A stretch of 64,000 bases of DNA from Escherichia phage pEC-M719-6WT.2: the sequence record OQ845958.1. One strand, 5' to 3'. Below are positions 1,717-54,015 of this stretch, one piece after another. Position numbers and translations under genes: made by a program. The notes beneath the pieces are model-generated. The model was given only the letters and a program-made list of their open reading frames with translations. It was not told where the DNA came from and did no database searches. The stretch's first letter is position 1. The number at the start of each line of letters is the position of its first letter.

Positions 1717-2797
1717 TGGTAAACATATAGAGGTTTGTAATTGATGTATTGTTACTCACTTCATGAATAACTTCGTCTACGTAAAAATCATATTTGAATT
1801 GGTTCTTCGGGTCATAGAAATTTATCTTATCACCCGGGGTTAATTCAAAGTTCCCGTATGTTTTGCAATGCGCGTAACCATCATATTGAGACATGGTTAT
1901 TAATCGTTGCGCTTCTTCGAAACCGTTTCGGTATGTATAATCCGAATAGCCGCCTGAACGAGATACCAGAATGCTGTTTTGTCCTTCCCCAAAAGTTATT
2001 CTGGTTGCGTTCTTGTCAAGGAATGAATGTGCATACACGGTTGCGTTTTCGTATGGTTTTCTTGTGTGTTGGTTCGCCTTTGTTAACCATTCAAAATCGA
2101 AGGCCAATGGAGTCTCGAGGTTTTGTACAAACTGGCCAACCAATCGAGGTTCACCCACCACGAAATTAATTGGCTCTTGTGATGTTAACCATTCATAATC
2201 CTGGATACTTATTCCATCAATATCTTCCCATACAAAAACAAATTTATCAGTTTCTACTGCCAAACCAACTTCCCTTATGAATTCCATATATCGGTTCATC
2301 GAATCACACCATGGAACGTTAGGAGCATAAACGTTTATGCCGTTTATTGGTGGAGAAAGCAACGGTCTATCCTGATAAATTACCCCGGTCATTTCGACTA
2401 ATGTTTCTTGTACACTCGGGTAAAACATACGACTAAATTTCAGGTCTTCAATTTCGTGAATAGGAGCCAGCTGAATTGTAATTATATTATCGCCTTTTGA
2501 ATCCACAGAAACTGCAAAGTGTTTGCTTCCATATATTCTGGATTGGGTTCGGTCTGAGTTGGCATTCTTAACGGAGACTTGTATAATTTGTTCACCGTTC
2601 ATTTTTGTATGTAAGTTCTTTGTGTCGTAGAATTGCAACAGACCTTCGTTTCTTCCGTAAAGAGAATCACGCATGGTCATAGTTGTAAATGTTGCAGCCA
2701 GTTCTACAAAACGGTGCTCGAGCCAGGCATCATAATCTTCGTAAAGGCGTATACTGATATTAGGAAAGCCTTCACGCTGCATAGATTTAGCTGTCAT
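1628..2797 (-). CDS. 27: Baseplate hub subunit gp27
   Basis: 389 aa; strong match to recalled T4 gp27 (e.g. [25 protein letters not shown]). Confidence 0.95.
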
Positions 2798-3546
2798 TTC
2801 TTCAAGTCCTTCTCAACTAACGATAAAGCAATACCTCGTTCGATAGGAATCATGTGCATGATGCTATCCAGTGTATATTGATTCTTTACCAGTAAGTGGT
2901 TAATTTGATAAAATACAAAGACTTCATCCGGGTTAAGGATAAGCTTAAAGACATCAATCAAGTCTGTATATTCGGTTTTGTGTTTTTCGCAGCAACCATA
3001 TGTAAATGGAATATAAACCGAATGCATTTTCTTAAGAAGCTCTTCGAGGCTCTCTATATCAATTGCATCGATAACTTGCATCTTTGTTTCTTCGGGAAGG
3101 TCTTCCCAATTGTATTTTTGTTCCGAGTCTTCGACGGTCTGAATGGTATTCAAGACAAGCTCTGACTTATCTTTATATTCCACTTCAGGGAACTTAAATT
3201 GTATTTTTATCCCCGCGGTTTCCATTGTTGGATTTGTCAATGGACCTTGACTCATATTAAACAAAGTCTGCTTTGTCTTTTTACATTTTTGACATTCAAA
3301 CGCTACCGGGACTTTTGTCTTACCGATAGAGGAAGTGAATACCTTCAGGAATATGTAAGGCCTCCATGCTTTTGGATACTCTCCAAAATAATCTTCCAAC
3401 AGTTCGTCTAATAATTGTTTTTGTTCTTCGACGGGTTTGTTGTTCATGTCGTTTCGCACAAGCAGTAAATCACGGTAATCAGCGACTGTAAACGGTTTGA
3501 AACGATGAACTCCGTCTGGCATTTCACATCTTACGATATTGGCCAT
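2794..3546 (-). CDS. 51: Baseplate hub assembly catalyst gp51
   Basis: 250 aa (T4 gp51 249 aa), position between 27 and 26, late promoter TATAAATA 25 nt upstream. Confidence 0.85.
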
Positions 3547-3570
3547 AGAATCCCCTTTTATCTTTATTGA

Positions 3571-10741: not shown

Positions 10742-11749
10742 ATGTTTAAGAAATACAACAGCCTTGAAAATCACTATAATAACAAGTTCATTGAAAAGAT
10801 TCGCCTGCAAGGCTTCACCAGCGGTGAATGGGTAGCTCGTGAGAAAATTCATGGTACCAACTTTTCATTAATCATTGAACAAGACAATGTGACATGCGCG
10901 AAACGCACTGGACCTATTCTACCTGCAGAAGATTTCTATGGTTATGAAATTGTATTAAAGAACTACGCAGATTCTATTAAATCTGTGCAGAAACTTTTGC
11001 AGGATATTAATTACCAGGCTTACCAGATTTATGGCGAGTTTGCTGGTACAGGTATTCAGAAGAATGTGGATTACGGCGATAAAGATTTCTATGTGTTTGA
11101 TATCCGCGTTACTAAGGAAGATGGCTCTGAATCCGTCCTGACTGACACACTTATGGAAGCCTTTTGTATTATTCATAAGTTTAAAGTTGCCCCACGCCTG
11201 GCCACAGGTAGCTTTGAAGACTTGATTAAGCTCCCTAATGACCTGGATTCTGTGGTCCCTGATTACAATTTTACAGTGGATAACGCAGGATTGACTACAG
11301 CAAATACCACTGATTTTGATGCAAAGGTGGAAGGTAAAGTATTCACTGCTGAAGGATTTGTATTAAAACCTGATGTTCCTGCATGGTTACCTAACGGTGA
11401 GCGCGTAGCGATTAAATGCAAGAACTCTAAATTCAGTGAAAAGAAAAAGTCTGATAAGCCTATTAAAGCTGCAGTTGTGTTGTCACAGGAAGACCTGGAT
11501 GTTTTATGGAAGTTCACTGATTATGTGACTGTTAACCGCATCAATAATGTTATCAGTAAGATTGGGGAAGTATCGCCGAAGGATTTTGGGAAGGTAATGG
11601 GTTTGACTGTCCAGGATATCCTGGAAGAAGCGGGTCGTGAAGGCCTTGAATTAACCCAGACGGAAAATCCTGTTGAAGTTAAAAAGCAACTTATCGCAAA
11701 TGTAAGAGAAACATTAAGACATGTTTGGATTGCATTAATTAGTGAATAA
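10742..11749 (+). CDS. rnlB: RNA ligase 2 (Rnl2)
   Basis: 335 aa; very strong match to T4 Rnl2 ([32 protein letters not shown]). Confidence 0.95.
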
Positions 11750-11778
11750 AAAAGGGCCACAAGGCCCTTATTCTTTTT
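11748..11778. terminator. Bidirectional hairpin terminator (GGGCC...GGCCC)
   Basis: AAAAAGGGCCacaaGGCCCTTATTCTTTTT between convergent rnlB and the 24 paralog. Confidence 0.7.
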
Positions 11779-13051
11779 CCAGCGGTGGAAGTTTAACACC
11801 AAGATAAGAACTCAATTGACTTTGGTTAGCCATCTTATCCATATCAGCTCCATCAATAAGGCGAGCTTCTTTATCATCTTTAGCAACGGTGTAAGGGTTT
11901 GCAGTCAAAGCATAACGAGCTAACAGTGCAACCGTAGGCTGTAAGCTTTCAGGGTCAACAATAACCTTGAATTCCCCAACCGAGGTATCACCCTCATCAT
12001 CAACTTCGCTAAGCCCTTCCGTATAAGGCGCATAATACAAAGATGCGACCGTCTGACCCTCGCCCATATCCGCATTTACACCAACAATAACATAATCGCA
12101 TGGACTATTCATATCTGCATAAAGAGGCAAACCGTTCTTCAGAACACCATAGGCCAATTCATCCTGGTCTTCCTTTTTCTCAACCCAACCAGAAGCGGCT
12201 AAAATAGCTGCACAACGGGAAGAAGCAACCGCATATGTACCAGCAAATGAAGTCTGACGTTGAACTGCAGAATTCATTTCACACATATAATAATACAGGG
12301 TTCGCGCGCGGTCCTGTGCGTTATCATATTTCGGGTCAGTGAGATTCAACACGCCTTTTTCAGAAACACCTTGTACCTTGAAGCGGGAACTAACAGTAAT
12401 AAGGGATTGCAATACATCCTTATTAATTTCCTCCGCCATTTGAATACCGAGAATATTATCGATGAAGTCTGTTGCATCGAAACCGTTTGCTTCCAGGTCC
12501 TGGGCAAGCTCGACAGTTAAAGAAGTTTTCAACTTTCTGGATTTAACTTCAGTCTGCCATTTATCGATACGGAACCCAGCTTCAGCAATTTCAGGATGCC
12601 CCTTTTCAAATTTATCAGTGAAAGCAGCATCTGACATCATTCTTATATGTCCAGCAGCAATGGCTTCAGAAATAACTTCACCTAAATCAGTTTCGAGTGT
12701 CCCGGCGAATGGTGATGCTTCCAGAACTTTGAATACAACGCTTTCAAACTGAAACATATCGCCGACTGCATAAGCTTCGTCTTTGTTTGTAAATTCTGGA
12801 ATATTCTTACGCTCGAACATACCAATCTGACCTGCAAATGTTGCTCCACCGAGATAAGTCATTTTATCATCTGGGTTCAGAACACGAACACCATACAGGG
12901 CTGCAACAGGCTGGGTAGTTTTCTGTTCGGCCACGAGCGCTTTAAAAATTCGTTTATTCGTAGCCTGAGTATAAGAAAGCAAATTAGGACGGGCGACCTG
13001 GTTGGCCGCCGTTAATGTTGATTCGTGAATTAGTGCATTAATCTTTTGCAT
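11768..13051 (-). CDS. Head vertex protein gp24 paralog (second, diverged copy)
   Basis: 427 aa; alignable with the adjacent gp24 along its length (TNQPVAALYGV, KSRKLKT.LTVELAQDLEANGF, NPYTVAKDDKEAR); in tandem. Confidence 0.85.
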   Translation of the reverse strand: MQKINALIHESTLTAANQVARPNLLSYTQATNKRIFKALVAEQKTTQPVAALYGVRVLNPDDKMTYLGGATFAGQIGMFERKNIPEFTNKDEAYAVGDMFQFESVVFKVLEASPFAGTLETDLGEVISEAIAAGHIRMMSDAAFTDKFEKGHPEIAEAGFRIDKWQTEVKSRKLKTSLTVELAQDLEANGFDATDFIDNILGIQMAEEINKDVLQSLITVSSRFKVQGVSEKGVLNLTDPKYDNAQDRARTLYYYMCEMNSAVQRQTSFAGTYAVASSRCAAILAASGWVEKKEDQDELAYGVLKNGLPLYADMNSPCDYVIVGVNADMGEGQTVASLYYAPYTEGLSEVDDEGDTSVGEFKVIVDPESLQPTVALLARYALTANPYTVAKDDKEARLIDGADMDKMANQSQLSSYLGVKLPPLEKE

Positions 13052-14332
13052 TTACGCCTCATAAATGATTGGCGGAAGTTTAACACCGAGCAGATAAGAC
13101 ATATTGCTCTGACCGGCCATTAAATCCATATTGGTTGCATCGATAATACGAGCTTCTTTATCGTCTTTAGCAACGGTGTACGGGTTAGCTGAAAGTGCGT
13201 AACGAACCATCAGAGAGATAGATGGCTGCAAGCTGTCTGGGTCCACAATGACCTTAAACGCACCAACGTGCTCTTCATCATCCAAGTCCAGGCCTTCGGT
13301 ATAAGGAGCATAGAAAATTGAGCCTACGACTTCGTTTCCGCCGTAATTTTCTTTAACACCAACAGTTACATAATCCAATGGACTGTTAACATCACAGAAT
13401 ACAGGGAGGCCATTAATCAAATAACCGTACGCTGTTTCGGGGAGCCACTGTTCGTCTTCTGGCCTGTGTTTCAACCAACCAGAACCGGCCAACATAGCAG
13501 CAACACGGCTAGAGGCAACAACAAAGGTACCGGAATAAGATGTAGTTTTCTGAATTTCGGAGTTCATTTCGCAAACCAGTTCGTACAGTTTACGTGCACC
13601 TTCTGGGGCTGCATCGTATGTTAAATCGATGGTGCCATTGTCAGAAACGCCAGTTACTTTATAACGCTTGGAAACGGTAATAAGAGACTGAAGAACATCT
13701 TTGTTAATTTCATCTGCCATAATAGTGGCAAGCAGGTCTTCTAAGAAAGCAGGAGCATTAAAACCATTTGCTTCCATATCCTGGGCAAGTTCAACAGTTA
13801 ATGCAGTTTTCAATTTACGTGTTTTAACCGGAGCATTCCATTTGTTAACCTGGAATACAGCATTGCTAATTTCAACATCACCGGCTTCGAATTTTTCAGT
13901 GTGTGCGGCATCAGGAACAAGGCGAATAGTCGATGCAATAAGACCTTCTTGCAGAACATCAGATAACACTGTTTCTGTGGTCGATGCAAATGGATTATCA
14001 ACCAGAGCTTTGTAAACGATATTTTGGTATTTTACATATTCGCCTTTAGCCACAGGCTGAGTGGCTGTAGTTAATTCTGGAATAGTTGTGCGGTCTTTAG
14101 AACCGACTTCGCCTCCATAAGTAGCGCCCGTCTGGAAACTGAATTCATTATCAGGAGTAAGATATTTAACACCATACAGTGCAGCAACAGGTTGGTTAGT
14201 ACGTTGTTCAGCGATGATATCGCGGTAAATCAATTTAGTCGTAGCGCGGGTCAAAGCAACAAGATTCGGGCGGCCCAAGGAGTTGCTGGTAGTAATAGTT
14301 GACTCGCGCAGTAATTTGTTAATCTTTGCCAT
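13052..14332 (-). CDS. 24: Head vertex protein gp24
   Basis: 426 aa; strong match to T4 gp24 N-terminus (MAKINKLLRESTITTSNSLGRPNLVALTRATTKLIY). Confidence 0.95.
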   Translation of the reverse strand: MAKINKLLRESTITTSNSLGRPNLVALTRATTKLIYRDIIAEQRTNQPVAALYGVKYLTPDNEFSFQTGATYGGEVGSKDRTTIPELTTATQPVAKGEYVKYQNIVYKALVDNPFASTTETVLSDVLQEGLIASTIRLVPDAAHTEKFEAGDVEISNAVFQVNKWNAPVKTRKLKTALTVELAQDMEANGFNAPAFLEDLLATIMADEINKDVLQSLITVSKRYKVTGVSDNGTIDLTYDAAPEGARKLYELVCEMNSEIQKTTSYSGTFVVASSRVAAMLAGSGWLKHRPEDEQWLPETAYGYLINGLPVFCDVNSPLDYVTVGVKENYGGNEVVGSIFYAPYTEGLDLDDEEHVGAFKVIVDPDSLQPSISLMVRYALSANPYTVAKDDKEARIIDATNMDLMAGQSNMSYLLGVKLPPIIYEA

Positions 14333-14358
14333 TTGCGCTTTCCTTTTGTGATATACTT

Positions 14359-14366
14359 TATTTATA
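14359..14366 (-). promoter_or_regulatory. Late promoter (TATAAATA) for gene 24
   Basis: Plus-strand TATTTATA about 27 nt upstream of the gp24 start. Confidence 0.55.
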
Positions 14367-14372
14367 AAAGTT

Positions 14373-14402
14373 GTTTACAACCAGATTAAGATAAGACATA
14401 AT
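14373..14402 (+). promoter_or_regulatory. Early-type promoter (GTTTAC-N18-CATAAT) with conserved leader CCATACTGAGTTA
   Basis: GTTTAC 14373-14378, CATAAT 14397-14402; the same leader recurs at about 52551 and 53597. Confidence 0.5.
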
Positions 14403-14443
14403 GATTCCATACTGAGTTAACAAACAAAACCTGGAGTTTAAAA

Positions 14444-14725
14444 ATGAACAAAGCAACTTTCCTTCTGAACACCTTTAAAAAATTGGAAATTGAAGTTATT
14501 GCATTGGTCAACAAATACCCAAATGGTGTTAATGGTAATGCTCTGAACAAACTAGTTAAAAAATATGAAAACTTAGCATATGACACTGATTTCTGGTGGA
14601 ATGGTAATTATTCTACTCACACTAAAGATAAAAATGGTAACTGGTTGAAACTTCAAGAAAACAATGTTAACTTCAGAGACCTCATCAAGCGCCGGGTAGA
14701 AGTTCATTTAAATGGTATGGTATGA
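14444..14725 (+). CDS. Hypothetical protein encoded opposite to the late genes, between 23 and 24
   Basis: 93 aa ORF with GGAG RBS, own early-type promoter and own terminator; occupies the position of segD in T4 but has no endonuclease motifs. Confidence 0.5.
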   Translation: MNKATFLLNTFKKLEIEVIALVNKYPNGVNGNALNKLVKKYENLAYDTDFWWNGNYSTHTKDKNGNWLKLQENNVNFRDLIKRRVEVHLNGMV

Positions 14726-14732
14726 AAACAAG

Positions 14733-14760
14733 AAAGGGACCTCAAGGGTCCCTTTTTATT
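14733..14760. terminator. Bidirectional hairpin terminator (GGGACC...GGGTCCC)
   Basis: AGAAAGGGACCtcaaGGGTCCCTTTTTATT between the plus-strand ORF and the 3' end of gene 23. Confidence 0.7.
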
Positions 14761-14775
14761 TAACTTAATCTAGGA

Positions 14776-16335
14776 TTAAATTCCTTTAACATATACGCGG
14801 CGGAAGTAACCGTTCAAGCCGAGGCTGTTAACGATGTCCGGCATGCCATTCTGGATGCGCTTGGCCGGAGCCTGAGCTACCGGGTCAGCGAACGGGTTAA
14901 TACCGATACCGTAACGGGTTTTGAAGCCCATAACCGGCTGGAAGTTTTTCGGGTCAGAGCCACGCAGCGGGGTCAGTGCAACATATGGTGCGTAGTAGAT
15001 ACCAGCATCCATTTCGTTAGCGCCTTTGTAACCGATGGTGAAATAGTCTGCACGAGCATACTGGTCGATGTATACACGGTATTTGCCACCCAGAACACCA
15101 GCGAACACAGCTTTAGTGGTGTCAACGTTGAAACCTTTACCCAGACCCTGAGCAGCATAAGATACGGAGGTATCAACTGCAGCCAGTACGTTAACTACGT
15201 TACGGGAAGCGATGATGAAGTTACCTGCACCACGGCCAGTCTGACGAGCGATTTCAGCGGCTTCTTTATCAATCTGGAACAGTAAAGCTTTGAAGCTTTC
15301 ACCAGCCCAACGAGCGCCACGGATATCAATCGGGTCCTGGAAGTCAAACACACCAGCTTTAGCGCCAACGGTGTTGGTCATACCAGATTTACCAACCTGT
15401 GCGGAGTAGTTAATCCAATCGATAACTTCGCGGTTGATTTCCAGCATAATTTCGGTAGCCAGAATACCACTCAATTCGGCATCAGCATCCATACCATGAA
15501 CAGCGCGCAGGTCCTGTGCCAGTTCGATGGAGTAACTTGCTTTCAGCTGGCGGGATTTAGCTTCGATAACTTGTTTATCGATACGGAAGCCCATTTCGTT
15601 CCACGGGTTATCAGTAGAACCGTTGAAGCCTTCCTGCAATTCGGCGATAGAGGTAGCCATACCTTCAGCGATTTCGGCCAGCTTACCAGCTTCGAGCAGT
15701 TTGGTAACTTCGGCGTCAAGTTTAGCGGCATCAGTAGCAGCAGCATCAACGGTTACAGCTTCAACAGCCTGGAAGTGCGCGGCACCGGTTGCTTCGAAGA
15801 AGTGAGAATAAATTTTACCAACGGTAAGAACTTTGCTTGCAGCCAGAGCTTCGAAAGCCTCAGCAGCGCCCTGACCAGAGAACATAGCATTTGGAGCATA
15901 CATCGGGTGGAAAGCTTCTTTAGCACCTGCAGCTACAGGGTCTTTACCGTAAACTGCACGCAGGGCAAATACCTGGCCAGTCGGGTTGTTCAGAGGCTGT
16001 ACGCCACAAATATCAAACGCAATCAGATGCGGGATAGCACGACGAACCATGCCCATAACTGCCGGCCCAATCTGAGTTACTGCACCAGAGGTCTGGCCAG
16101 CAGCGATATTGGTAGCATCATAACCATGGTCACCACCGATTTCAGCTTCGGTCAGGAAAGAACCAAATGCTTCGGAGATTTTTTCGTCACGGTATTCAGG
16201 AGCGGTCAGAATATCTTGTTCCTGGTTTTCAAAGATTTTAGCGATGATAGCTTGTTTGGAAGCACCAACGATTTCCGGAAGAGCTTCGTTTTCCAGCAGA
16301 GCGGACCATTTTTGAACTAATGCATTCTTTTTCAT
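14776..16335 (-). CDS. 23: Major capsid protein gp23
   Basis: 519 aa; near-identical to T4 gp23 over long stretches (IGPAVMGMVRRAIP, FRRVYVKGI C-terminus). Confidence 0.97.
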   Translation of the reverse strand: MKKNALVQKWSALLENEALPEIVGASKQAIIAKIFENQEQDILTAPEYRDEKISEAFGSFLTEAEIGGDHGYDATNIAAGQTSGAVTQIGPAVMGMVRRAIPHLIAFDICGVQPLNNPTGQVFALRAVYGKDPVAAGAKEAFHPMYAPNAMFSGQGAAEAFEALAASKVLTVGKIYSHFFEATGAAHFQAVEAVTVDAAATDAAKLDAEVTKLLEAGKLAEIAEGMATSIAELQEGFNGSTDNPWNEMGFRIDKQVIEAKSRQLKASYSIELAQDLRAVHGMDADAELSGILATEIMLEINREVIDWINYSAQVGKSGMTNTVGAKAGVFDFQDPIDIRGARWAGESFKALLFQIDKEAAEIARQTGRGAGNFIIASRNVVNVLAAVDTSVSYAAQGLGKGFNVDTTKAVFAGVLGGKYRVYIDQYARADYFTIGYKGANEMDAGIYYAPYVALTPLRGSDPKNFQPVMGFKTRYGIGINPFADPVAQAPAKRIQNGMPDIVNSLGLNGYFRRVYVKGI

Positions 16336-16356: not shown

Positions 16357-17175
16357 TTAAGAAATTCGTGATGCTGCGAGAGCAGACAAGTCCGCGAAGG
16401 ACAGGGTAGGCTTGGCGCCTTTTTCTTCAACTGCTTCTGAAATGTAATTCAGTGCCGCAGCATCGTCTACATTTTTATTTATAGCGGCTTCGGTGATTGG
16501 TTTGCCGGTGGGTTCTACCTGACCTTTAACCATTTCAACGATAGCGCCAATTTTGGTACCGAATGCATCAGAGTATTCCATGCCTTCTACCAGAGAACCA
16601 ACTTTTTCTTTTTGAGATTCAGTCAGGTCTTTAGTCGCTTCAGTCAACGCAACTTCACGTTGGACATAATTGATATAAGCATCACGCTTAGCAACTTCTT
16701 CGAACAGATTAGCGGTTTCTTCTTTCTGTTCAGCCAGTTCTTCCTGCATTTCTGCAACAACATCGACAGATTCTTCTGGAACAACAACGTTGTGCTCAAC
16801 GAACAGTTCTTTCATGCCGGTGAACATGGATTCGAACAGGTCAGCTTTAATGCCACGGTCGACAGCCAGTTTATTTTCAGCGAGCCATTCTTTAGCAACG
16901 TGGTCCAGGAATTTAGCTGCAGATTCTTTCAGTTTTTTCTCTGCTTTTTCGTCGGCTTCTTCTTTATTCTTTTCGACTTCTTCTTCAGCTTTTTCAGCGA
17001 TGGCGTGAATGTGAGATTCTGCCAGTTTGATGGCGTGTTGCTTGACGGTAGCTTCGAATACAGTGCCGAAGGTAGCTTTCGCTTCCGGGGACAAATTAAC
17101 TGATTCGAAAATACTATCGAGAGCAACGGAAGCATCGATATTCTGAGCTTCAGAAATGAGTTGTTCTTTAAGCAT
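16357..17175 (-). CDS. 22: Prohead scaffolding core protein gp22
   Basis: 272 aa acidic coiled-coil protein between 21 and 23; T4 gp22 about 269 aa. Confidence 0.9.
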   Translation of the reverse strand: MLKEQLISEAQNIDASVALDSIFESVNLSPEAKATFGTVFEATVKQHAIKLAESHIHAIAEKAEEEVEKNKEEADEKAEKKLKESAAKFLDHVAKEWLAENKLAVDRGIKADLFESMFTGMKELFVEHNVVVPEESVDVVAEMQEELAEQKEETANLFEEVAKRDAYINYVQREVALTEATKDLTESQKEKVGSLVEGMEYSDAFGTKIGAIVEMVKGQVEPTGKPITEAAINKNVDDAAALNYISEAVEEKGAKPTLSFADLSALAASRIS

Positions 17176-50791: not shown

Positions 50792-50867
50792 GGCCCTGTA
50801 GCTCAATTGGTTAGAGCATCCGGCTCATAACTGGCAGGTTTCCGGTTCAAGTCCGGATGGGGCCACC
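50792..50867 (+). tRNA. tRNA with anticodon CAT (Met, or Ile2 by analogy with the T4 AUA-reading tRNA-Ile)
   Basis: Manual fold: acceptor GGCCCTG/TGGGGCC, D-arm GCTC..GAGC, anticodon loop CTCATAA, T-arm TCCGG TTCAAGT CCGGA; one anticodon-stem mismatch. Confidence 0.8.
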
Positions 50868-50944
50868 CGGGGTGTAGCTCAATTGTATAGAGCAACGGTC
50901 TTCTAAACCGTAGGTTGTGGGTTAGAATCCCACCACCCCGACCA
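50868..50944 (+). tRNA. tRNA-Arg (anticodon TCT)
   Basis: Manual fold: acceptor CGGGGTG/CACCCCG, anticodon stem ACGGT/ACCGT, loop CTTCTAA, T-arm GTGGG TTAGAAT CCCAC, encoded CCA. Confidence 0.85.
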
Positions 50945-52484: not shown

Positions 52485-52520
52485 TACCCCGAATAAATTT
52501 GAAATTTTCTTCAAAAAGTA

Positions 52521-52575
52521 GTGTACATCCGAATTGACTGGATGCATAATGATTCCATACTGAGTTACACACTGA
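52521..52575 (+). promoter_or_regulatory. Early promoter cassette (GTGTAC-N18-CATAAT) with conserved leader CCATACTGAGTTA
   Basis: GTGTAC 52521-52526, CATAAT 52545-52550. Confidence 0.5.
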
Positions 52576-52601
52576 ATCAAACAAAACTTTGGAGAAATAA
52601 A

Positions 52602-53027
52602 ATGAACTTCCTGACCCTGACTTCTGCATTCTCTGTTACCCGCATCACTAACAAAATGGTTGCCGACGAAGTATGTGAAATCTGCATTCGTGAAGATGCA
52701 CTTATTCATCTGACTTCAACCCAGATTGTTGCCATCGCTAAGTCCCTTAATTCTGAACTGAAGGTAAACACCAAACAGTCAAAAGAATCTATCATTGAAT
52801 TAATCCAAGCTGAAATGATTGAATTCCCAATTGAAGAAGTTAAAGAAGAAAAAATCCAGTCCAAATCTGGTAATGCTCGTGACATTTGCTTCCAGGCATT
52901 TGCAGAAATTGATATGGCAGATGGTGCAGCTCGCCGCGCCCTGATTGATGTTCTGGTTAACACCCATGATATCAAAAAGACTGTTGTTCAGTCATATGCT
53001 TCCAACTTCCGCAAAGCTCAAAAATAA
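52602..53027 (+). CDS. Hypothetical protein, paralog of the 53111 ORF (shared C-terminal domain)
   Basis: Start moved to ATG 52602; C-terminus GAARRALIDVLV...VVQSYASNFRK shared with the next gene. Confidence 0.55.
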   Translation: MNFLTLTSAFSVTRITNKMVADEVCEICIREDALIHLTSTQIVAIAKSLNSELKVNTKQSKESIIELIQAEMIEFPIEEVKEEKIQSKSGNARDICFQAFAEIDMADGAARRALIDVLVNTHDIKKTVVQSYASNFRKAQK

Positions 53028-53038
53028 TTGAGAAAAGT

Positions 53039-53075
53039 GTTTTACTTCCAGGTGGGATAGTGTATAATTATCCCA
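53039..53075 (+). promoter_or_regulatory. Early promoter / stem-loop cassette (TTTTAC-N17-TATAAT within GGGATA..TATCCC)
   Basis: TATAAT 53063-53068, stem GGGATA 53054-53059 / TATCCC 53070-53075, then leader CATACTGAGTTACCAAATAAA. Confidence 0.55.
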
Positions 53076-53110
53076 TACTGAGTTACCAAATAAACAAACG
53101 GGATAATAAA

Positions 53111-53554
53111 ATGAAAACTTCAAAACTGGTTAAGTACGTTAAGCTGGCATTAAACAACTCTTCTGAAGCTGAAGCACAATCCGCAGCACGTATGTTCTTC
53201 AAACGTCTGGCAGCTGAAGGTATTTCATTTAACCCGGCAGTATTTGGTATCACTCGTGGCGAAGCTGCTAAACTGGCAACTCTGGCAGGTAAAATTTTTA
53301 AAGGTCTGAATGATGGACAGGTTAAACCAGAAGTTAAACCTACTCCTAAAGCTGAACCAAAAGCTGAACGTAAGGCACCTAAACGCTCCGGTATGAGCAA
53401 CAAAGATTTATGCTATGATATGTTCAAAACTGTTAATATGTCTAATGGTGCTGCTCGCAGAGCTGTTATTGATATGATTGTGCGTGAGTTTGGATTCAAC
53501 AAAGCATCAGTTCAGTCTTATGCTTCCAACTTCCGCAAAGAATTTGAAATTTAA
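53111..53554 (+). CDS. Hypothetical protein, paralog of the 52602 ORF
   Basis: Start moved to ATG 53111; C-terminus GAARRAVIDMIV...SVQSYASNFRK; Lys/Pro/Glu-rich linker. Confidence 0.55.
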   Translation: MKTSKLVKYVKLALNNSSEAEAQSAARMFFKRLAAEGISFNPAVFGITRGEAAKLATLAGKIFKGLNDGQVKPEVKPTPKAEPKAERKAPKRSGMSNKDLCYDMFKTVNMSNGAARRAVIDMIVREFGFNKASVQSYASNFRKEFEI

Positions 53555-53560
53555 TTCAAA

Positions 53561-53596
53561 AAGGGGGTATACAAGCCCCCTGCTTTAAGGCATAAT
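53561..53596 (+). promoter_or_regulatory. Hairpin plus early promoter (GTATAC-N18-CATAAT), -35 inside a GGGGG/CCCCC stem-loop
   Basis: GGGGG 53563-53567 / CCCCC 53576-53580; CATAAT 53591-53596; leader CCATACTGAGTTACCAAATAAAAC. Confidence 0.5.
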
Positions 53597-53637
53597 GATT
53601 CCATACTGAGTTACCAAATAAAACACTGGAGAATAAA

Positions 53638-53943
53638 ATGAAATTCATCATCAACCTGGCGCTTGTTGACTTTGATAAAACTGGTAATTTCGCATCTGCT
53701 GAAAATATGATTCGTAACACCAAGTTTAAAGTGCAAGTCCAACAGGCGGTAGCAAAAGAGTTCTTTACTGATAAATTAACTAACGTTGTTAATCACCTGA
53801 ATGTGCAAGTTAAATTCACTCGTGAAGCGGAAACTACTGTTGCATTTGATTTTGACTGCCAATACCATGATGAATATGTTCGCCGCATCCTGGATATTGT
53901 GTCTGATGAACTTTACTATGGTGTGCAGGAAAACAAAATCTAA
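53638..53943 (+). CDS. Hypothetical protein
   Basis: 101 aa with GGAG RBS. Confidence 0.55.
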   Translation: MKFIINLALVDFDKTGNFASAENMIRNTKFKVQVQQAVAKEFFTDKLTNVVNHLNVQVKFTREAETTVAFDFDCQYHDEYVRRILDIVSDELYYGVQENKI

Positions 53944-54015
53944 ATTAGTGCTTTAATGGGAACATGATAGTATGTTCCCTGGATAATAAAACATTAACCA
54001 ACTGAAGGAAATACC

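Follow-up and report, generated by a model that had tools for sequence, protein, structure and literature searches.

Why does a small gene stand on the opposite strand between the late genes 23 and 24 of a T4-like phage, and is it a gene in its own right, an accessory of the capsid, a regulatory stretch of DNA or the remains of a mobile element? The question is raised by a 93-aa open reading frame (ORF93) of Escherichia phage pEC-M719-6WT.2 (OQ845958.1), from which 64,000 nucleotides, referred to below as the window, were analysed. The window represents a T4-like phage of the genus Gaprivervirus (VR7/SP18-like). Over 13900-15200 it shares 99.5-99.7% identity with Escherichia phages TH40, TH22, TH55 and UPEC07 and with Yersinia phage vB_YenM_P8, and 93-94% with VR7, VR20, VR25, VR26 and SP18. 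A local map drawn from the ORF list and the VR7 annotation has ORF93 flanked by gp24, present as two tandem copies, and by gp23:

10742-11749, plus strand: rnlB
11768-13051, minus strand: gp24(2), the second tandem gp24 copy
13052-14332, minus strand: late gene 24(1), capsid vertex protein, a 426-aa ORF orthologous to VR7 24(1) (97% aa identity); left flank
14776-16335, minus strand: late gene 23, major capsid protein, a 519-aa ORF with 99% aa identity to VR7 gp23; right flank
beyond gp23, minus strand: gp22 and gp21

The following elements make up the unit between these flanks:

14355-14372, plus strand: A/T-rich, UP-like region 5' of the -35, ACTTTATTTATAAAAGTT (89% A+T over 18 nt)
14359-14366, minus strand: late promoter TATAAATA of gene 24(1), which reads TATTTATA on the plus strand at 14359
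14373-14402, plus strand: promoter of sigma-70/T4-early type, GTTTAC (14373-14378), N18, CATAAT (14397-14402)
14398-14419, plus strand: 22-nt -10/leader module ATAATGATTCCATACTGAGTTA, repeated genome-wide
14407-14419, plus strand: leader CCATACTGAGTTA, a 13-mer
14433-14436, plus strand: Shine-Dalgarno sequence GGAG, 7 nt 5' of the ATG (14444)
14444-14725, plus strand: ORF93, 93 aa, 10.9 kDa, basic (pI 9.6), stop codon TGA at 14723-14725, phrog_6003
14731-14762, both strands: bidirectional intrinsic terminator, a GGGACC/GGTCCC hairpin with T-runs on each strand

The initial annotation had described an early-type ORF lying between genes 23 and 24 on the strand opposite to them, with a promoter, a conserved leader and a bidirectional terminator of its own, and each of these parts is indeed present where it had been placed. 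Together they form a self-contained monocistronic cassette that lies exactly between the gene 23 terminator and the gene 24 late promoter. Two minus-strand ORFs in the same stretch (14386-14586 and 14573-14707) were judged to be shadows of the conserved plus-strand ORF93 and set aside.

The promoter can equally be read as TTTACA-N17-CATAAT, which in a consensus scan matches the consensus at 10 of 12 positions. Matches to the sigma-70 hexamers are not above chance (2 seen against 3.0 expected in 1.5 kb), and the hexamer match alone proves nothing about this promoter. Conservation and context add to it. In the alignment, the position of the -35 is kept in five lineages and in T4, and the GGAG before ORF93 is retained in all aligned relatives. 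Neither a MotA box (TGCTT) nor the late-promoter element TATAAATA occurs on the plus strand between 14333 and 14443. With a -35, a spacer of 17-18 bp, a TATAAT-like -10 and an A/T-rich upstream stretch, the promoter has the make-up of a T4-type early promoter and belongs to neither the middle nor the late type; the A/T-rich region is a component both of T4 early promoters and of the promoter-early stem-loop (PeSL) cassettes discussed below (PMC2988021, PMC4122927). Back to back with the early promoter, and 6 bp from its -35, stands the late promoter of gene 24(1), whose TATAAATA is invariant in VR7, JS98, Shf125875, T4 and two metagenomic lineages (L007 and L009), and is also found in other genera whose junction is empty.

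A stronger indication of the class of this gene comes from the leader, which is far above chance and clearly non-random. The 13-mer has four exact copies in the window (14407, 52555, 53073 and 53601), all on the plus strand, each 4 nt after an xATAAT box and each followed by a purine-rich ribosome site (GGAG/GGGA) and an ATG. Allowing up to two mismatches gives 10 matches in the window against 1.2 expected, a number reached by none of 100 shuffles. The other three exact copies precede small genes of unknown function (phrog_9997, phrog_18416 and phrog_7474). The genomes of VR20, VR25 and VR26 each contain about nine copies of the 22-nt module in which the leader is embedded, ATAATKATYCCATACTGAGTTA, all of them on a single strand. 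In VR7 the module lies directly 5' of the ORF277c-motA operon and of the ORF287c-ndd.4/.3/.1 (ndd.x) cluster, and at both places an A-rich tract lies upstream and the -35, GTGTAC, is equally spaced. Middle transcription is activated by MotA, whose own gene has to be read from an early promoter (PMC2988021). Because the VR7 motA operon carries the same module, early expression of ORF93 has good indirect support, and the assignment of ORF93 to the early class, as proposed in the initial annotation, is supported by sequence comparison. With a view to possible cleavage of the GGAG by RegB, we sought regB in VR7 between 150 and 169 kb as well, and it was not found in that stretch. The predicted transcription start of ORF93 lies at about 14408-14410; the leader RNA that would follow is predicted to be unstructured (z +1.3). 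The leader CCATACTGAGTTA is specific to Gaprivervirus and is missing from the orthologous promoters of JS98 and Mosigvirus. Compared with other lineages, the Gaprivervirus promoter has its extended -10 and leader replaced by the genome-wide CATAATGATTCCATACTGAGTTA module.

The other end of the cassette is closed by a terminator with stems of 12 bp and 9 bp and T-rich tails on both strands, the arrangement of a bidirectional intrinsic terminator. On the plus strand the hairpin 14731-14757 is followed by TTTTTATTT (-17.0 kcal/mol, z -3.9), and on the minus strand the stem 14755-14733 is followed by CTTGTTTTC (-17.8 kcal/mol, z -3.3). By prediction, this hairpin can end both the ORF93 mRNA and the late mRNA of gene 23. 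A hairpin is found at the matching place in all relatives and in empty junctions, and a terminator 3' of gene 23 is reported to be conserved in six T4-like genomes (PMC1524935). In Gaprivervirus the terminator has acquired a proper plus-strand T-run, unlike that of other lineages.

Is ORF93 itself a functional gene? A homology search, which had been suggested at the outset, places the protein in phrog_6003, a family of unknown function: the match (E 8.9e-47) runs from residue 1 to 90 against profile positions 1-90 of 90. The family comprises 23 protein clusters. Orthologues include VR7ORF190c (ADR32565), JS98 orf173 (AAU29301), Shf125875 PI26_gp230 and RB69ORF188c/189c, and identity to the ORF93 protein falls from 92% in VR7 to 61% in JS98 and about 36% in Mosigvirus. 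By tblastn, 237 phage records encode ORF93 over at least 80% of its length: 31 at 90% identity or above (Gaprivervirus), 83 at 60-80% (Dhakavirus) and 123 below 60%, the last being 122 of the Mosigvirus type (about 36%) plus Acinetobacter phage ABPH49. ORF93 is thus a real, conserved gene, which more than 200 phage records already list as hypothetical. Within the searchable library, orthologue names and accessions led to no paper on the family, and literature searches returned no transcriptome for these genera and no expression data for any ORF93 orthologue. In every T4-like carrier (Gaprivervirus, Dhakavirus, Mosigvirus and the metagenomic lineages L007 and L009) the gene occupies the junction of genes 23 and 24, on the strand opposite to theirs. 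ABPH49 and a related metagenomic contig, which are not T4-like, have their homologue among many small ORFs on the same strand.

A freely shuffling accessory gene would not usually keep such strict synteny over so long a divergence, and this could point to a link with the capsid genes.

Selection on the coding sequence was estimated from the comparison with VR7, where dN/dS is 0.20 for ORF93, 0.047 for gp23 and 0.043 for gp24(1). ORF93 is under purifying selection. Between distant alleles, where dS is saturated, pairwise dN/dS reaches 0.4-0.67, and constraint on ORF93 may therefore be weak in places. For the same phage pairs, dN of ORF93 is 6-15 times that of gp23. Eight residues (M1, K3, F6, N30, G31, N32, A45 and Q71) are invariant across the family, and L14, L21 and N35 are nearly so. 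The initial annotation had named, as the finding that would overturn it, an unexpressed ORF in an intergenic region of variable junk; purifying selection and a confidently predicted fold, described below, contradict that picture.

These data also bear on the idea that ORF93 is a decaying insertion, left for instance after a homing endonuclease came and went, and is not expressed to any purpose. Several lineages do carry homing endonucleases at this junction, and the GC content of ORF93 is low (33%; window 41%, neighbouring genes 43-50%). Disrupted copies exist too. In RB69 two frameshifts divide the gene into ORF188c and ORF189c, and truncated forms are found in phages mogra and 310Ecol104PP. 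We take these frameshifted and truncated copies to mean that ORF93 is dispensable. A remnant, however, would not be expected to remain intact and full-length in 237 records from three genera, to have a dN/dS well below 1 at short distance, to encode a confident globular fold or to keep promoter, ribosome site and terminator together, and no similarity to GIY-YIG, HNH or other nucleases is found in ORF93 or its family (Pfam). We therefore regard a non-functional remnant as highly improbable.

The divergence of the cassette has sharp borders. In a sliding comparison it is confined to 14374-14785, that is, from promoter to terminator, and the flanks are 80-95% identical. The gene tree of ORF93 is also at odds with that of its flanks. 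In the metagenomic lineage L009, gp23 and gp24 are 93% and 91% identical to those of the window, yet its ORF93 is only 30% identical. The same L009 protein is 62% identical to the Mosigvirus allele, although the capsid genes of L009 and Mosigvirus are the most distant pair. The simplest reading would be that the cassette, or else its flanks, passed between lineages at least once.

What else can occupy the 23/24 junction? It had been proposed that ORF93 might be an accessory gene that had replaced a mobile element in this slot, and a comparison of the junction across T4-like phages, suggested together with that proposal, finds endonucleases, small ORFs or nothing, depending on the lineage. Homing endonucleases are present in T4 (segD, opposite strand, as stated in the initial annotation), in Lazarusvirus Berthold (opposite strand) and in Pseudotevenvirus EC-W1 (same strand), and other small ORFs are present in Krischvirus and Biquartavirus. 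In Tequatrovirus teqskov, Jiaodavirus, Gelderlandvirus, Karamvirus and Bragavirus the junction is empty, with about 80-120 bp containing a hairpin, a T-run and TATAAATA. On this pattern of occupancy the junction is an insertion hotspot. Compared with the empty sites, ORF93 has been inserted at a point bounded directly by the late promoter on one side and by the T-run of the gene 23 terminator on the other.

T4 segD shares with ORF93 the junction, the opposite-strand orientation and the insertion point. Its upstream region and the ORF93 promoters of JS98, Mosigvirus and L009 can be aligned position by position, and the shared elements follow in the same order: late TATAAATA, AAAGTT, an (A/G)TTTAC -35, a TGnTAnTAT extended -10, GGAG and ATG. 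The T4 segD -35 is ATTTAC and lies beside the late promoter of gene 24. The payloads differ. SegD has 223 aa and a GIY-YIG domain, whereas ORF93 has 93 aa and no nuclease motif; a Seg-type protein would be expected to combine a GIY-YIG catalytic domain with a DNA-binding domain in about 220 aa, and ORF93 does not. Distribution differs as well, since segD is sporadic, being missing from Tequatrovirus teqskov, and ORF93 is fixed across three genera and two metagenomic lineages. These comparisons suggest one promoter-terminator frame with alternative payloads, segD or ORF93. Common descent of that frame is likely, though short of proof, since most of the shared positions belong to consensus elements. 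A swap of payloads within one frame is plausible, and could have run in either direction. The proposal of a replaced mobile-element slot thus stands as far as a hotspot visited by homing endonucleases and a plausible swap in a shared frame are concerned; it fits less well with a junction that is empty in five sampled genera and with an ORF93 that is far more widely fixed than segD.

In another interpretation the unit acts at the level of DNA or RNA, as a transcriptional insulator, an antisense device or a recombination cassette, and ORF93 is incidental. The positions of promoter and terminator are better conserved than the coding sequence, T4 seemingly keeps the same frame with the unrelated segD payload, and transcription converging with that of gene 23 meets it at the bidirectional terminator. 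Constraint at the level of the protein speaks against this: dN/dS is 0.20, the predicted fold is confident and conserved, and K3, F6, N30, G31, N32, A45 and Q71 are invariant across alleles that are only 30% identical. Empty junctions, moreover, have the insulating terminator and the late promoter with no cassette between them, and a search of Rfam with 14200-14900 gives no family at the gathering threshold, only sub-threshold sRNA matches on the terminator hairpin. A DNA- or RNA-level unit of this kind is, in our estimate, very unlikely.

Among known systems, the unit comes near to the PeSL cassettes of T4-type phages described by Arbiol et al. 2010 (PMC2839356) and Comeau et al. 2014 (PMC4122927). 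Published PeSLs consist of an A/T-rich region, a sigma-70-like promoter, a Shine-Dalgarno sequence and an ATG, and are repeated genome-wide; they go with ORFan genes and with sites of insertion, deletion and replacement (PMC4122927, PMC2839356). The PST/T4 consensus of PeSL promoters, TTTACW-N17-TAYWAT, resembles the TTTACA-N17-CATAAT of ORF93. The ORF93 unit likewise has an A/T-rich upstream stretch, a Shine-Dalgarno sequence and an ATG, and its -10/leader sequence is highly conserved, with many repeats per genome on the early strand. Like PeSLs, it is associated with small ORFan genes and is isolated transcriptionally by a stem-loop terminator. It occupies an indel and replacement site, as the divergence island 14374-14785 and the variation of the junction by genus indicate, and the phylogenetic incongruence of L009 is consistent with exchange of a cassette.

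The likeness is incomplete in three respects. The stem-loop just 5' of the promoter, a defining feature of published PeSLs, is missing; the divergent late promoter of gene 24 lies there instead, and the sole strong hairpin of the unit is 3' of the ORF (14731-14757). PeSLs that flank a gene can recombine with each other to give mini-circles, whereas only one promoter copy flanks ORF93. Sister copies of the module do have an upstream stem-loop, namely the window copy at 53601 and the VR7 motA copy. Unlike PeSLs, the ORF93 cassette is located inside a conserved structural module rather than in a hyperplastic region, and its conserved part reaches 13 nt into the transcribed leader (CCATACTGAGTTA).

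Its place within the structural module raises the possibility that ORF93 assists or regulates the production or assembly of gp23 or gp24, for example as a chaperone-like or vertex-specifying protein. Every T4-like lineage that carries ORF93 has it between gp23 and gp24, and gp24 is duplicated in most carriers. The correlation with the duplication fails in both directions, however: Mosigvirus has ORF93 with a single gp24, and Gelderlandvirus has the duplication without ORF93. The promoter is of early type and the gene is on the opposite strand, loss by frameshift is found in viable phages such as RB69, and five sampled genera with the same capsid genes have nothing at the junction. Because the ABPH49-type homologues occur among arrayed small ORFs of early type and well away from any capsid gene of the gp23 type, the family is not tied to the T4 capsid module. 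A role in capsid production or assembly is, on balance, unlikely.

An AlphaFold2 model of ORF93, built with 19 family members, has a pLDDT of 94 and a pTM of 0.81 and consists of three helices (residues 3-24, 31-48 and 77-90) and a beta-hairpin (52-61/67-71). In a fold search of BFVD the sole match is its own ABPH49 homologue, and because the two superpose with a TM of 0.86-0.90 at 31% identity, the fold is taken as conserved across the family. Foldseek against the PDB with this model gives a best E of 3.3, and a sequence-profile search of the PDB gives only de novo helical bundles at E ≥ 0.1. ORF93 thus has a confidently predicted fold for which no relative was found in the PDB or BFVD. Pfam, at E ≤ 10, identifies no domain in the protein and no nuclease family among the 19 members, in agreement with the earlier observation that endonuclease motifs are lacking, and Pfam, NCBIfam and PADLOC searches of ORF93 and the 19 members give only scattered matches at E > 0.001 with no consistency among them. 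An exhaustive phmmer search of 1.84 billion representatives yields five matches: family members, a probable chimera and a protein with Ig-like repeats. The chimera (P0023) is an apparent chimeric or mis-assembled ORF and was set aside. The last match aligns residues 30-68 with a 1633-aa protein containing eight Ig-like repeats ('TWPDGTTSTTTVDESGNW'), and was judged to be a short beta-hairpin or compositional resemblance rather than domain homology. An initial guess, made from the N-terminal sequence, that ORF93 is a winged-helix/HTH DNA binder finds no support in the fold searches. We also reject the label 'glycosyl hydrolase family 25' of GenBank entry PQ341120 on grounds of size, fold and the absence of a Pfam match; membership of GH25 would imply a match to the muramidase domain PF01183, of about 180-200 aa.

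All seven family members tested are hydrophilic and basic proteins of about 10 kDa, with a pI of 9.2-9.8 and a net charge of +2.6 to +6.9 maintained at about 30% identity. Because it is small (93 aa, three helices and a hairpin) and has no catalytic motifs, ORF93 is probably not an enzyme, and because it is basic in every lineage and not enzyme-like, it is most likely a binder. We consider that ORF93 probably acts early, without enzymatic activity, by binding to some component of the host. Small early proteins of T4 for host takeover and anti-defence, such as AsiA, Arn, Dmd and Ndd, are about 60-150 aa long, are expressed from early promoters, are non-essential on laboratory hosts, evolve fast and bind a host macromolecule. 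ORF93 may be likened to these in function. Its fast evolution, exchange of alleles and frequent loss would fit a gene for host interaction or counter-defence. We infer the binder and counter-defence roles from two sources only, the analogy to small T4 early proteins and the conserved charge.

A sequence of events consistent with this reading can be outlined. Unmodified host sigma-70 RNA polymerase would transcribe ORF93 in the first minutes of infection, and the unstructured leader and GGAG would allow efficient translation. The terminator would stop early transcription before it entered gene 23 in the antisense direction; read-through from late gene 23, if any, would be antisense to the ORF93 mRNA. 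The protein would then, most likely, bind stoichiometrically to host nucleic acid or to an acidic host or defence protein, and would serve as a conditionally useful host-takeover or counter-defence factor. We consider this overall picture, an early cassette encoding a conditionally useful host-binding factor, reasonably probable, with most of the uncertainty in its functional part.

A bolder version, in which ORF93 represents a family of novel structure whose small, basic, early-made proteins disable a host immune mechanism, seems to us unlikely. If it were true, the position of the gene, its arms-race-like rate and the swapping of its alleles would fit a counter to capsid-sensing defences. 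Such a link may exist; nothing found here specifically supports it.

Taken as it stands, ORF93 is an ordinary accessory gene and no new kind of element; it would not surprise a T4 specialist, and it opens no long-standing question. What the unit adds is a well-delimited example of a known pattern, in which small early ORFan genes of T4-type phages are carried in portable promoter-terminator cassettes. Here the cassette lies inside an otherwise rigid capsid block, at a junction that is filled in different phages by homing endonucleases, small ORFs or nothing. With a fold that has no known relative, a basic charge and a rate of evolution 6-15 times that of its neighbour gp23, ORF93 would be a reasonable candidate for host-takeover and anti-defence screens.

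The promoter/leader module upstream of ORF93, a −10 box with a 13-nt leader, recurs elsewhere in the window. Positions 52520–53950 of the plus strand carry three cassettes in tandem, resembling the promoter-early stem-loop (PeSL) cassettes of T4-type phages, and all three share with the ORF93 promoter the module xATAAT-N4-CCATACTGAGTTA. Their ORFs are as follows.

52602–53027, plus strand: first cassette, phrog_9997, unknown function
53111–53554, plus strand: second cassette, phrog_18416, unknown function
53638–53943, plus strand: third cassette, phrog_7474, unknown function

The first two ORFs have a common C-terminal domain of ~70 aa (44% identity), and in the third cassette a GGGGG...CCCCC hairpin holds the −35 element in its loop. 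The window also encodes, on the plus strand, a tRNA-Met (cat) at 50792–50867 and an adjoining tRNA-Arg (tct) at 50868–50944.

Identical copies of the window's module are present in Gaprivervirus VR7 (L041, HM563683).

12575–12587 and 16412–16424, minus strand: promoter/leader module, VR7

One such module lies upstream of ORF277c-motA and one upstream of ORF287c-ndd.4/.3/.1. A terminator hairpin directly precedes the module at motA, giving this copy the classic PeSL arrangement.

Orthologues of ORF93 differ in annotation and integrity. That of phage EAWsc9 (PQ341120, L036; 845–1126) is labelled ‘glycosyl hydrolase family 25’ in GenBank, in what looks like a mis-annotation. The homologue in RB69 (NC_004928, L006; 9292–9532) is frameshifted, its halves being RB69ORF188c and ORF189c; it differs by two indels from the Mosigvirus allele in Shf125875, which is intact. 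Residues 30–68 of ORF93 also match the Ig-like repeat motif ‘NNGNG...TWPDGTTSTTTVDESGNW’ of P0024, a 1633-aa metagenomic protein found by phmmer (E 6e-8 over the whole protein) that contains eight repeats (e.g. residues 438–476). This match probably reflects a β-hairpin motif or compositional resemblance.

To the left of ORF93, the capsid vertex protein gene is duplicated.

11768–13051, minus strand: gp24 paralogue, first of a tandem pair
13052–14332, minus strand: gp24 paralogue, second of the pair

The paralogues are 55% identical and are separated by zero gap. VR7, Dhakavirus JS98 and Gelderlandvirus Melville carry the same duplication, as do two loci from metagenomes, L007 and L009 (both with an ORF93 homologue); in Mosigvirus and T4, gp24 is single-copy.

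Other Straboviridae lineages carry unrelated insertions between gp23 and gp24.

Lazarusvirus Berthold (L037), 2142–3566: homing endonuclease
Pseudotevenvirus EC-W1 (L039), 2187–2822: homing endonuclease
Krischvirus G2248 (L016), 2263–2571: small hypothetical ORF(s)
Biquartavirus L9-6 (L040), 2179–3343: small hypothetical ORF(s)

The gp23/gp24 junction is a recurrent insertion hotspot.
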